This document shows, in pieces, positions 1,183-4,020 of a stretch of 6,341 bases of DNA. Every line of letters starts with the position of its first letter. Positions within the stretch are counted from its first letter, which is position 1. This DNA is from Candidatus Wukongarchaeum yapensis (lineage in GTDB: Archaea > Asgardarchaeota > Wukongarchaeia > Wukongarchaeales > Wukongarchaeaceae): the NCBI GenBank assembly GCA_016840425.1, contig JAEOSI010000135.1, positions 1 through 6,341 on the forward strand, written 5' to 3'. The notes under the pieces were generated by a model. It was given only the letters and a program-made list of their open reading frames with translations. It searched no databases and had not been told where the DNA came from. The position numbers and the translations under genes were made by a program.

Positions 1183-1668
1183 CTATTTTTTAGCCCATTC
1201 TTGCTCCCAAGTGGCGTGTTTTTTAACCATTTCTATAGCCTTTTTCTTAAAAGACTTAAAGCTCTTTTTGAACTCTTTTGCACACTGTATGTCGAGAGGA
1301 TCATCAGGATTCGGGTTGTTTAAAAGAAACCTTATACTTTCAACAACATTAACCAAAGAATAGCAGGGTAACCACTCTTTTCCAAGTACTCCTATGCAAA
1401 CACGATCTTTCCGAAAGTTGGGATGATAAATTGGCGTTAAAATTCGCACGTTAGGGGACTTGAAAGGAAATTCCCTAGGAAGAGTGATTTCGAAGAAAAA
1501 TACCCCGCCTTCATAGATGCCTGTTCCCAAGATAAACCCTCTCCACTTTCTTACATCTCCCTCTACTGCCTGAAATCCTGGTTCTTCTTTCCGCATTTGA
1601 TCCGCTTCCATGGCAACTCTTGCCTCAAACTCTGGAAGCGGCAACATAACTGCCGTATCGCTCATCAT
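1183..1668 (-). CDS. Ubiquitin-conjugating enzyme E2 (UBC fold), 161 aa
   Basis: UBC signature W.G.I.G...YEGG.F...I..P.EFPF..P.V...T.IYHPN, followed by Cys91 in RVCIGVL, a downstream W, and LL..PNPDDPL. GGGAGGT ribosome-binding site at 1679-1673. Confidence 0.93.
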   Translation of the reverse strand: MMSDTAVMLPLPEFEARVAMEADQMRKEEPGFQAVEGDVRKWRGFILGTGIYEGGVFFFEITLPREFPFKSPNVRILTPIYHPNFRKDRVCIGVLGKEWLPCYSLVNVVESIRFLLNNPNPDDPLDIQCAKEFKKSFKSFKKKAIEMVKKHATWEQEWAKK

Positions 1669-1672
1669 AAAG

Positions 1673-1679
1673 ACCTCCC
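1673..1679 (-). promoter_or_regulatory. Shine-Dalgarno site of the E2 gene
   Basis: GGGAGGT ends 4 nt before ATG 1668, and a second in-frame ATG follows immediately. Confidence 0.7.
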
Positions 1680-1698
1680 GTCTCTAATAACGATTTTT

Positions 1699-1714
1699 TT
1701 AGAGAGCTCTCTAA
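1699..1714. promoter_or_regulatory. Perfect 16-bp palindrome TTAGAGAGCTCTCTAA, candidate operator upstream of the E2 gene
   Basis: The sequence equals its own reverse complement. It lies immediately downstream of an AT-only TATA-like stretch (minus strand TTATTAATAAAG, 1726-1715). Function is inferred. Confidence 0.5.
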
Positions 1715-1756
1715 CTTTATTAATAATTAGAAGATTTTGCAGCTTTTGGATCACTC

Positions 1757-2515
1757 TTAGGCACTTTCTTCAAGGCGAGTTTTCCAATCAATAGCTTCAT
1801 TTTCTAGCTCTTCCTTCATCTCTTGGGTTAGGGCTAGGTTTCCCACACGATTTAGCTTTTCTATAAAGCGCCCCATCGTGTAAAAGCTAGGATGATATGA
1901 TTTTGCTGTCTGATATAACTTTTCCCTCAAATTTTCGAGAAAAATTGCCAGTTCACTAGCTGGGCGGTTCTGATTTATTAAGGCTAAAAATTGATCAAAA
2001 AGCTCCCCTATAGTCCCCCCTGTAGGCGTAAGGTCAGGAGGAGAAACTGCAACGGCATCAAGAGGTACTGTAGGTTGTTGTGGTTGTGGTTGTGGTTTTG
2101 GTTTTGGTTGTGGTTTTGGCTGTGGCTGTGGCTGAGGAGGAGGGGGTACCGTTCCTGGGATTTCAGGCATTGAAACGAATATAGGCTCGGGTTCCGGCTC
2201 AGGCTCACTAGGAGGAGGGCTTGGAGTGACAGGTTCAGATACAGGGCTTACAGCCTCAGGTTCAGGCTCAGAAACAGGCTCAGGCTCAGAAACAGGCTCA
2301 GGCTCAGAAACAGGCTCAGGCTCAGAAACAGGCTCAGGCTCAGAAACAGGTTCAAAAGTTTCTATGGGGCCCTCTCCCGTTTCTTCTTCTAATAGGGCGC
2401 TTAGGCGCCATTCTATCTTTCGCATGGTCATAGCAAGGTTTTCAACTGTCTTTGCAGCCTCTTCTACTTGTTTATGTAATGATTTTATTACACTCATGAT
2501 CTTTTTAGAAGCCAT
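1757..2515 (-). CDS. Hypothetical 252-aa protein: N-terminal coiled coil, long Pro/Glu-rich linker, C-terminal four-helix-like domain (possible Vps28-CTD-like)
   Basis: Long ORF with amphipathic heptad pattern at aa ~3-45, (EPVSEP)x5 and (PQ/PK)x10 repeats, and helical aa 169-252 ending AIDWKTRL. The CDS itself is well supported; the Vps28 likeness is a by-eye comparison only (about 0.45). Confidence 0.85.
2078..2137 (-). repeat. Ten imperfect 6-nt units encoding [20 protein letters not shown]
   Basis: Plus-strand units TTGTGG / TTTTGG / CTGTGG / CTGAGG in a continuous 6-nt register. Confidence 0.9.
2263..2352 (-). repeat. 18-nt tandem repeat, 5 copies, encoding (EPVSEP)x5
   Basis: Plus-strand CAGGCTCAGAAACAGGCT: four exact copies plus one with a single mismatch. 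Confidence 0.95.
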
Positions 2516-2786
2516 TTAACCACTGTCCTTGTTTTTGATAATTATTTTCTTTTTAACTAGTTTTTTAAAAGTTCTCAAGTTTTAGTACATCACTATATTA
2601 TATTATTATGATTTTTAATTACTTTAATTTTTTTAGGTTTCATACTTTACTATATTTTAAAAAAGGGAGGCATTTTTGGAAAGATATACAGGAAGATGTT
2701 ATGCTGACAATCTACATACTTTTATTTTTTTTACAAAAATCCAAACAGTTTGAGATAGAATGGTTTTATAGGACATGTGATGATTC

Positions 2787-3326
2787 ATGAAGCCTAAAAT
2801 AATGTTTCCTGGGAGTTTACCTTGGAAAATTTGTCTTCTTGGCGATGGTTTCGTGGGAAAAACCTGTCTTTCAAGAAAGCTTATAATTGAAGATTTCAAA
2901 GAACATTATGAAAAGACTATTGGATGCGATATTCTCACGGGGAATTTAAAAGTTAACGGATTTTCTTTAAAGTTAGTGTTGTGGGATCTTAGTGGGCAAG
3001 AACGTTTTAAGGAGGTTCGCGCTCCATTCTACCTTGGAACACGGACAGCCCTTTTAGTTTTTGATATCACTTGTAGGGGGTCTTTTTTTGATATAAAGCA
3101 TTGGTTGCGTGAACTCCGGAATAAAGCGCCAGAATCACCTTTCGTAATAGTGGGAAATAAAGTAGATAGGGAGGAAGAAAGAGAAGTCTCAAAAGAAGAG
3201 GGAGAAGAATTGGCAAAACACCTTAGAACCACACATATAGAAACCTCAGCAAAAACGGGTTATAACGTAGAAAAAGCTTTTAAAATGGCAATAAAAAAGG
3301 CAATAAAAAAGGAGTCTATACATTAA
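2787..3326 (+). CDS. Rab-like small GTPase (Ras superfamily), 179 aa
   Basis: G1 GDGFVGKT, G2 TIG, G3 WDLSGQE, G4 NKVD, G5 SAK. RabF-like segments IGCDI, KLVLW, RFKEVR, FYLGT, LVFDIT. SD-like GTGAT at 2777-2781. No C-terminal cysteine prenylation motif. Confidence 0.93.
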   Translation: MKPKIMFPGSLPWKICLLGDGFVGKTCLSRKLIIEDFKEHYEKTIGCDILTGNLKVNGFSLKLVLWDLSGQERFKEVRAPFYLGTRTALLVFDITCRGSFFDIKHWLRELRNKAPESPFVIVGNKVDREEEREVSKEEGEELAKHLRTTHIETSAKTGYNVEKAFKMAIKKAIKKESIH

Positions 3327-3330
3327 AAAA

Positions 3331-4020
3331 CTATTTTTTAACTCTTTTAGGCCGTTTTTTAAGCAAATAAGATGAAAAGAAAACGCCTAAAAACGGTAAA
3401 AATACGATTACCACGATGAATATTTTAGTAAGATCCTTTGTTCCAGGTTCAGGAAACCAAGGTTCTTTCTCTTTCTTGGGTTTTTCAACAACCGTTATGG
3501 ATATACCTTGCCCGTTGTTTGTTAGTTGGTATCGCGTCTCGTTATCGCCCGAGGTTGTGTTTGTGAAAAACACGTAGGTTATGTTTGAGGCAGTGAGGGT
3601 GAAGCTATCAGTGGTATTAACGTTTATTTTGTAGCTTAGTTTTACCCATTCAGTAGCATTGAGCACTGGAATGGTTAAATTAACAGAATCGAGAGATTTC
3701 TTTTGAGGATCAGTATTGTTCCACCAATGAACAGTGTCGTTCAAAATAACGATCCCTTCTGGAAGGTTGAGGTACTCATTTATGGTTACATTGTAAAATG
3801 TATCGTTTCTGTAGGTTGTTGATTGATTTATGGGGCCTAAAAAGTTCTCAACTTGCAAATAAACGGTTATGTTTTCGCCTTGCATAACCGTGTTTTTATC
3901 CACAACTTTAACAGTCAATAGACCATCATCTGAAGCATTAACTCCACTAAAGACGGAGTTTGAAAGCAATAAAAAGGTTAATACGAAAAATGCTTTCAAA
4001 AGGAACACACGACGCGACAA
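3331..4020 (-). CDS. Signal-peptide, single C-terminal TM glycoprotein with Ig-like (TRAP-beta / BatD / DUF11-like) ectodomain, 229 aa
   Basis: TTG start supported by GGTGA at 4031-4027. Hydrophobic N-terminus ending ...GVNA. L.V.K.VDK..V..GE.ITV.L.V.N beta-strand pattern. 13 N-x-S/T sequons. TM IFIVVIVFLPFLGVFFSSYLL followed by basic tail KKRPKRVKK. Confidence 0.8.
   Translation of the reverse strand: MSRRVFLLKAFFVLTFLLLSNSVFSGVNASDDGLLTVKVVDKNTVMQGENITVYLQVENFLGPINQSTTYRNDTFYNVTINEYLNLPEGIVILNDTVHWWNNTDPQKKSLDSVNLTIPVLNATEWVKLSYKINVNTTDSFTLTASNITYVFFTNTTSGDNETRYQLTNNGQGISITVVEKPKKEKEPWFPEPGTKDLTKIFIVVIVFLPFLGVFFSSYLLKKRPKRVKK

Follow-up and report, generated by a model that had tools for sequence, protein, structure and literature searches.

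The gene for a ubiquitin-conjugating enzyme (E2) in the Asgard archaeon Candidatus Wukongarchaeum yapensis adjoins a gene for a 252-aa protein, which we call HB4, and we favour the reading that these two genes form a functionally linked pair, while placing it slightly short of an even chance. On the same reading, the two further genes beside them, for a Rab-like GTPase and a membrane glycoprotein, are unlinked neighbours, and the four do not make up one module. The window, by which we mean the whole stretch of DNA analysed, is an entire contig of 6341 bp (JAEOSI010000135.1, hereafter C135) from an assembly of 2.16 Mb in 277 contigs that is 92% complete. [quoted passage not shown] The list of open reading frames (ORFs) agrees with its placing of four adjacent genes, their orientations and a 271-nt divergent region, and we regard all four as real genes because they are kept as intact ORFs in five related contigs.

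The E2 named by the initial annotation proved to be a catalytic one. Its product matches the Pfam family UQ_con (PF00179) with 109 bits against a cut-off of 27, over profile positions 3-138 of 140, and an alignment of 13 orthologues shows no variation at His82 and Asn84 of the HPN motif or at the catalytic Cys91; it is hence a catalytic E2 and not a ubiquitin E2 variant (UEV). UBE2T and UBE2D are its closest solved relatives. A genome-wide scan found UBC-like domains only in this protein and in the UEV of a Vps23-like gene, and no catalytic E2 besides that of the window was therefore found in the genome, which is 92% complete. As had been noticed at the outset, no ubiquitin, E1, RING, JAMM or ESCRT-II/III gene is present in the window by the ORF list and Pfam. 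The main cluster was located on another contig, C109, which encodes ubiquitin, a RING-H2 protein, a 157-aa protein, UEV-Vps23, Vps28, a 107-aa protein and EAP30, and the E1 orthologue is on C232; E2, E1 and the ubiquitin/RING/ESCRT genes thus occupy three separate contigs. The window is therefore separate from the main cluster, as supposed, and the joint presence of these genes on C109 bears out the supposition that the genome is Asgard: its source is an Asgard metagenome-assembled genome of Heimdallarchaeia type. Judged by gene content, the window E2 would be charged with ubiquitin by E1, with the ubiquitin of C109 and the E1 of C232 as candidate partners.

The label of Vps28-like given to the second gene stands for the fold of the C-terminal bundle and fails for the remainder of the protein. 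HB4 is not Vps28, and in its predicted structure it is Vps28-like only in the fold of the C-terminal 87 residues. It belongs to no Pfam family and has no match to VPS28 (PF03997) at E up to 0.1, and NCBIfam gave nothing further for it or for the 229-aa membrane protein; the genuine Vps28 of this genome (50 bits; 223 aa, including a C-terminal domain of its own) is encoded on C109. The AlphaFold2 (AF2) model of HB4 has three parts, namely a helix (residues 2-45), a disordered linker (46-165) and a four-helix bundle (166-252). The steadiness-box N-terminal helical hairpin of Vps28 is missing from this model, and its place is taken by one continuous 44-residue helix followed by the 120-residue Pro/Glu-rich linker. 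The N-terminal helix is probably a coiled coil, since of 15 family members scanned, 8 matched generic coiled-coil families in this part of the protein. The linker contains EPEPVS units, the product of a tandem repeat of 18 nt (2257-2354; 5.4 copies, 97% matches); close orthologues are 211-295 aa long and differ in linker length, indicating that the length of the spacer is evolutionarily plastic. Motifs of the UEV-binding late-domain type (P[ST]xP) were considered as a further feature of the linker and discarded, with three observed against 2.05 expected in shuffled linkers. One of them, PTVP, is invariant among close orthologues, and a P[ST]xP motif is missing from most of the family.

The resemblance of the bundle to the C-terminal domain (CTD) of Vps28 emerged from three structural methods, each of which ranked the Vps28 CTD first. 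Among some 48,000 chains searched with VIA-align, the best match was the yeast Vps28 CTD (2J9U_A; Z 11.5, rmsd 2.2, 87/94 residues aligned), and the runner-up followed at Z 9.0, a margin of 2.5 Z units. The top four rows of a Foldseek search were all Vps28 CTD, at E values of merely 0.15-0.3, and an Atlas structure search returned a eukaryotic VPS28 cluster (TM 0.79 by target) alongside unnamed Asgard clusters. Across the yeast structures (PDB 2J9U, 2J9W, 2G3K), the likeness extends over about 87 residues at an rmsd of 2.0-2.6 A. Deep profiles compared with hhalign matched the bundle to Asgard Vps28 (E 1.1e-4, probability 56%), a match in which helices 3-4 and the Vps28 C-terminus line up in register, while a single-profile comparison with the genome's own Vps28 gave a probability of 1%. 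Several observations weigh against this likeness. The VIA-align tool itself notes that a Z below about 13 may reflect a generic arrangement for helical bundles, four-helix bundles are common, and the HB4 bundle also matches CheA P1, FAT domains and designed bundles at Z 8-9. In sequence the link is weak: VPS28 was absent from the 25 families most often matched by the 15 HB4 family members scanned, and a profile of the C-terminal domain run against PDB sequences gave chance-level rows only, with no Vps28 among them. A feature search of the Atlas with that domain yielded a single unnamed Asgard cluster, whose score of 0.76 falls short of the useful range.

HB4 resembles the Asgard Vps28-C accessory proteins (PMC10936438) in being an extra protein beside a complete Vps28, and differs from them in that its gene adjoins E2, outside the ESCRT cluster. 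Stand-alone and multidomain Vps28-C proteins are a typical Asgard elaboration and have been proposed to dock on ESCRT-II in a way that does not depend on core ESCRT-I (Makarova et al. 2024, PMC10936438); neither the architecture of HB4 nor its pairing with E2 was found in the accessible portions of the text and supplements of that paper.

The case for a functional pair is carried by gene neighbourhoods. We surveyed 80 E2-anchored loci from named genomes and found E2 and an HB4-family gene to be immediate neighbours in the locus of the window's own genus and in 17 loci of the Heimdallarchaeaceae, including those of AB_125, Heimdallarchaeum PR6 and PM71. In the Heimdallarchaeaceae the two genes are divergent, and a comparison of genera shows an in-place inversion of the pair as one block between collinear flanks: Heimdallarchaeum has QueE / HB4, E2 / DZR and the other genera have DZR / HB4, E2 / QueE, where DZR denotes a zinc-ribbon protein described below. 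In the window, unlike this divergent arrangement, HB4 and E2 are in tandem. The in-place inversion and the difference between tandem and divergent arrangements imply that the adjacency has outlived at least two rearrangements. HB4-family genes occur at one to four copies per genome (a single copy in the window's genome and likewise in its genus partner), and chance adjacency to the single-copy E2 should therefore be rare. Within the window the two genes may be co-transcribed, as the short spacer between them would allow (Table 1). From these patterns we infer that E2 and HB4 may be coupled, either physically or through their regulation.

The HB4 family itself is widespread. Six-frame searches of 201 Asgard genomes with the C-terminal domain recovered it in 139, often in several copies, and an exhaustive HMM search found few but real distant relatives with the same three-part layout and the conserved pattern L-x2-LR ... 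HP-x-F ... DW-x2-R. This distribution also supplies the principal arguments against the pair. Genomes of one family (f6; families are given here by our own handles) have HB4 in 40/43 cases and E2, with the query used, in 0/43, and those of another (f14) have HB4 in 0/7 and E2 in 7/7. HB4 is therefore not an E2-dependent family. In Hodarchaeales the HB4 homologue is a long way from E2 and has PGK and a zinc-ribbon gene as its neighbours. In the one sister-family genome available, which is 91% complete, the HB4 gene is absent from the corresponding 1.1-kb gap and was not found elsewhere in the genome. The tree of the C-terminal domain has a weak backbone (56/83) and leaves it undecided whether the copies of f1 and those of the Heimdallarchaeaceae are orthologous. 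Finally, the genes for preQ0/archaeosine synthesis (QueC, PTPS, FolE2, QueE) are always beside the E2-HB4 pair and are as well conserved there as the pair itself.

These observations bring forward the chief rival, which we regard as a serious possibility although not the probable one, that the four genes are a chance neighbourhood kept by inertia, and that E2-HB4, E2-preQ0 and the series of Rab, membrane protein and methionine adenosyltransferase (MAT) are all inherited gene orders within the Heimdallarchaeia. The adjacency of E2 and preQ0 genes is common to families f1, f2 and f4 and has no plausible functional rationale, and inherited gene order can therefore explain E2-HB4 too. Inertia on this scale is plainly seen in close relatives, where a block of about 15 kb including the MAT, L35Ae and preQ0 genes is collinear, and it accords with the uncoupled phyletic patterns of HB4 and E2 and with the sister-family locus that has no HB4. 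It would also account for the GTPase, since 17 Ras-like genes are spread over about 2.2 Mb and it is not rare for one of them to lie close to a given gene. What inertia explains less readily is that HB4 and E2 stayed together through the inversion and the change between divergent and tandem order, and that the flank on the HB4 side differs between lineages (Rab in f1; DZR or QueE in f4). Moreover, the two HB4-adjacent groups are not sisters in the E2 tree, and inertia therefore requires long retention of the adjacency together with losses in the lineages between. If the E2-HB4 adjacency is mere inherited gene order, the window holds ordinary Asgard gene content. Overall, the interest that remains is that of a variant of the Asgard ubiquitin-ESCRT system, modest but open to test.

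Under the reading that we favour, of a linked E2-HB4 pair, E2 would be charged by the E1 of C232 and work with the RING E3 of C109. The N-terminal helix of HB4 would oligomerise or dock on another partner, and its bundle would contact ESCRT-II (the EAP30 protein of C109) or a zinc-ribbon partner, as the yeast Vps28 CTD does. HB4 would then be a flexible adaptor through which ubiquitin conjugation and ESCRT recruitment are expressed, and perhaps act, together, whereas the Rab-like GTPase and the convergent type-I membrane glycoprotein would be neighbours within this order only, with nothing tying them to the pair. A more specific version, which by analogy would have the N-terminal helix hold E2 while the bundle docks on ESCRT-II, would couple ubiquitylation to ESCRT without ESCRT-I in the Heimdallarchaeia and give the E2-recruiting HB4 a role comparable to that of a primitive ESCRT-0 or an E2 tether; as a joint claim we consider it unlikely. 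Helical E2-binding regions such as the U7BR of Cue1 and the G2BR of gp78 offer a comparison for the helix. A complex prediction for E2 with full-length HB4, each entered as an alignment, scored 0.08 against a mark of 0.32 in a run without controls and is evidence neither way. How ubiquitin marking came to be joined to ESCRT sorting is a question still open in the history of eukaryotic membrane trafficking, and in the archaea regarded as nearest to eukaryotes E2 has moved out of the ESCRT cluster. With its putative coiled coil and a bundle like the tail of Vps28, HB4 is a candidate missing link from ubiquitin to ESCRT that can be tested cheaply: E2 and HB4 are both small and soluble, and Heimdallarchaeota AB_125, which also has the pair, is an organism whose ESCRT proteins have been made and investigated before (PMC9192718).

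The DZR protein of the gene orders above, of 170-216 aa, combines a conserved domain at its N-terminus with a zinc ribbon at its C-terminus. Its gene adjoins that of the HB4 family in the majority of Heimdallarchaeaceae and also in Hodarchaeales (L083:7587-8222, L084:8662-9270, L019:6573-7085), and the proteins of the two groups are homologous. In Heimdallarchaeum its gene is on the E2 side of the pair, and no clear orthologue was seen in the window's genome. The adjacency recalls the contact between Vps28-C and the zinc finger of Vps36, which is only an analogy.

The Rab-like GTPase was correctly named. It scores 163 bits against Pfam Ras (PF00071), its translation contains the G motifs GDGFVGKT (G1), WDLSGQERF (G3), NKVD (G4) and SAK (G5), and its best solved relatives are Rabs, with the Thorarchaeota Rab 7EZB first, followed by Ypt6, Rab26 and Rab1. 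With 7EZB and the eukaryotic Rabs Ypt6, Rab1 and Rab8 it has in common a Ras-fold G domain, with the full complement of G motifs, and a Rab-type WDxxGQE switch II. It differs from eukaryotic Rabs in its C-terminus, a Lys-rich tail that contains no cysteine and so no eukaryotic Rab prenylation motif, and its orthologue is recognised only within the order. Archaeal Rab-like proteins usually have no C-terminal prenylation cysteine. The genome has 17 Ras-superfamily ORFs in all, this one included.

Its assignment to a module together with E2, HB4 and the membrane protein did not withstand comparison. The proposal in full, that all four genes are a co-regulated satellite module in which ubiquitin conjugation is tied to an ESCRT-I-like adaptor, to a Rab switch and to a translocon-like membrane protein, now appears highly improbable to us. 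The set is compact and is kept together in the genus and family: five related contigs, in which HB4 is 65-89% identical, retain all four genes along with MAT, L35Ae and the preQ0 genes. However, the flanks are equally collinear in these close relatives, and the conservation of the four genes there therefore says nothing about function. Comparison of neighbourhoods across Asgards had been set beforehand as the check, and among the 80 E2 loci the same set with different flanks was not found in distant genomes, nor was the four-gene set found anywhere outside the genus and family; confined to close relatives, it is not a conserved unit. Two sub-sets do reach further. One is the E2-HB4 pair, which recurs in the Heimdallarchaeaceae and is the part of the satellite-module proposal that survives along with the separation from the main cluster. 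The other is seen in the sister-family genome (n=1), where, as in the window, E2 adjoins an orthologous Rab (a reciprocal best hit at 48% identity), which is convergent with a 370-aa BatD/DUF11-like membrane protein and followed by MAT.

A shared intergenic region might also be invoked in favour of the four-gene module, as HB4 and the Rab-like gene are divergent across 271 nt in the window and about 300 nt in related contigs. On the other side of the Rab-like gene the arrangement is unfavourable: its end is 4 nt from the end of the 229-aa gene, and the two genes are convergent, so that no shared transcript is possible. The Heimdallarchaeaceae keep only E2 and HB4, and the Rab encoded three genes from their pair is not an orthologue of that of the window, being its best hit in neither direction. 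Links between GTPase and ubiquitin genes do recur, as an Arf-like GTPase gene lies inside a cluster of E2, RING, ubiquitin and E1 genes in Hodarchaeales; this hints at an independent GTPase-ubiquitin link in the Heimdallarchaeia.

The membrane protein is a further obstacle to the four-gene module. Its sequence of 229 aa has a signal-peptide-like N-terminus, a beta-rich middle, many N-x-S/T sequons, one C-terminal transmembrane (TM) helix and a basic tail, and its AF2 model consists of helix, strands and helix at a pLDDT of 37, too low for a usable fold. The TRAP-beta-like label was justified at the level of the superfamily and no further: the match to TRAP_beta (PF05753) reaches 13.7 bits (E 0.041, residues 111-223) against a cut-off of 22.4 and ranks fourth in a whole-genome scan, behind a gene on contig C48 (51.6 bits in that scan), which is the true TRAP_beta homologue of this genome (51.8 bits) and lies beside Get3. 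No significant similarity between the 229-aa protein and the C48 TRAP-beta was found by BLASTP, and the 229-aa family was not found outside close relatives in the loci examined. Its Atlas feature neighbours are clusters of DUF11, CARDB, BatD and TRAP_beta, all below 0.9. The predicted signal peptide, glycosylatable beta-rich ectodomain and single C-terminal TM helix would be shared with TRAP-beta and with DUF11/CARDB/BatD proteins, and the sequence suggests a weak likeness at the DUF11/CARDB/TRAP-beta superfamily level only; from TRAP-beta proper it is set apart by falling below the family cut-off and by the presence of the actual TRAP_beta elsewhere.

The true TRAP-beta gene on C48 (L014:5642-7368) is directly beside the gene for Get3/ArsA, the tail-anchored-protein targeting ATPase, and the same adjacency is seen in 24 of the 30 best TRAP-beta loci (L173-L202), which come from several Asgard families. 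A text search of the literature gave no paper joining Asgard, translocon-associated protein and Get3 among the matches listed. C48 also encodes a second Rab-like GTPase (L014:4044-5262, minus strand), 31% identical to that of the window, and 25 nt downstream of it a 221-aa protein that has an N-terminal CxxC and belongs to no Pfam family. These two genes, divergent from the TRAP-beta gene, are possibly a two-gene unit, and their arrangement beside TRAP-beta was seen in the window's genus only. A Rab gene with a TRAP-beta-like gene was considered as a recurrent pair and rejected, given that the second instance is confined to this genus and that the two Rabs share only 31% identity.

The last alternative, that HB4 is a cofactor or tether of E2 unrelated to ESCRT and that its likeness to Vps28-C is that of any four-helix bundle, gains from the recurrence of the adjacency in two lineages, from the lack of a sequence-level VPS28 match and from the matches of unrelated proteins at Z 8-9, but we give it little weight in view of the first place of the Vps28 CTD by three methods with a clear VIA-align margin, the in-register hhalign match and the abundance of the family in genomes where no E2 was found.

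The separation of E2 from the ESCRT genes is best seen beside other Asgards. E2 is at most four genes from Vps23, Vps28 or EAP30 in 15 of the 80 loci, which belong to Hermod-, Baldr-, Hel- and uncultured lineages; the sole Odin contig starts just before E2, leaving the cluster side out of view, and the ubiquitin-ESCRT genes of Odinarchaeum LCB_4 have been reported as a single cluster (Hatano et al. 2022, PMC9192718). Compared with the cluster of the Hermodarchaeota type, the window's genome has an orthologous E2 (47-64% identity) and likewise encodes ubiquitin, a RING E3, UEV-Vps23, Vps28 and EAP30, but here and in other Heimdallarchaeia-type lineages E2 is outside the cluster. Loci of the Hodarchaeales type (n=14; L107-L109, L112, L113, L116, L133, L136, L141, L144, L152, L156, L164, L167) show the order E2, a 338-343-aa protein, a metallo-beta-lactamase, RING (called in 11/14) and a 126-157-aa coiled-coil protein, and then, co-directional, the Arf-like GTPase, a KaiC-like ATPase, ubiquitin and E1. 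On C109 a 344-aa protein with no Pfam family (C109:14913-15977; L013:2911-3945, minus strand) is encoded next to ubiquitin; its orthologue adjoins E2 in Hodarchaeales and a homologue is four to five genes from E2-HB4 in Heimdallarchaeum PR6. The protein possibly belongs to the Asgard ubiquitin system as a part so far overlooked.

Table 1. Features of the window (C135) and the positions of ubiquitin and E1 on other contigs of the same assembly
Feature	Position	Strand	Length	Basis or remark
queC, 5' part	1-155	-		Pfam QueC
TnpB (IS605-type) remnants, two broken frames	158-827, perhaps to ~1130	-		Pfam Cas12f1-like_TNB and OrfB_IS605; NCBIfam guided_TnpB; stops upstream
E2	1183-1668	-	161 aa	ORF list
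Spacer HB4-E2	1669-1756	-	88 nt	GGAGG-type ribosome-binding site 6 nt before E2 start; no T-run
HB4	1757-2515	-	252 aa	ORF list
HB4 four-helix bundle, residues 166-252	1760-2020	-		pLDDT 82-94; Vps28-C-like fold
HB4 Pro/Glu/Gln-rich disordered linker, residues 46-165	2021-2380	-		pLDDT <60
HB4 N-terminal helix, residues 2-45	2381-2512	-		AF2 pLDDT 77-87; invariant among close orthologues
Divergent intergenic region, HB4 / Rab-like gene	2516-2786		271 nt	AT-rich, GC ~29%
Rab-like GTPase	2787-3326	+	179 aa	ORF list
Type-I membrane protein	3331-4020	-	229 aa	ORF list
Ubiquitin	C109:16057-16260			
E1 orthologue	C232:10267-11367			

The left end of the window is explained by contig C48. Window bases 1-144, when reverse-complemented, are identical to the first 144 bases of C48, an overlap that falls inside queC, and C48 therefore carries the locus on to the left, in the order QueC, PTPS, FolE2, QueE, CBS, the 221-aa protein, the second Rab-like GTPase, the true TRAP-beta and Get3/ArsA. 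The same gene order runs unbroken in related contigs, without the TnpB remnant, which in the window sits between queC and E2 and is missing from that position in all relatives examined (E2-QueC gap about 150 nt). The insertion is a decayed, lineage-specific one that does not belong to the four-gene cluster, and C135 and C48 are neighbours between which the assembly probably broke at this strain-variable insertion. On the right, the four genes are flanked by those for MAT and the ribosomal protein L35Ae. Rfam and tRNA scans of the window gave no matches. At its right-hand end (6207-6341), a 21-nt tandem repeat of 6.4 copies runs off the contig and encodes, on the minus strand, an acidic Glu-rich repeat in an ORF cut by the contig end.

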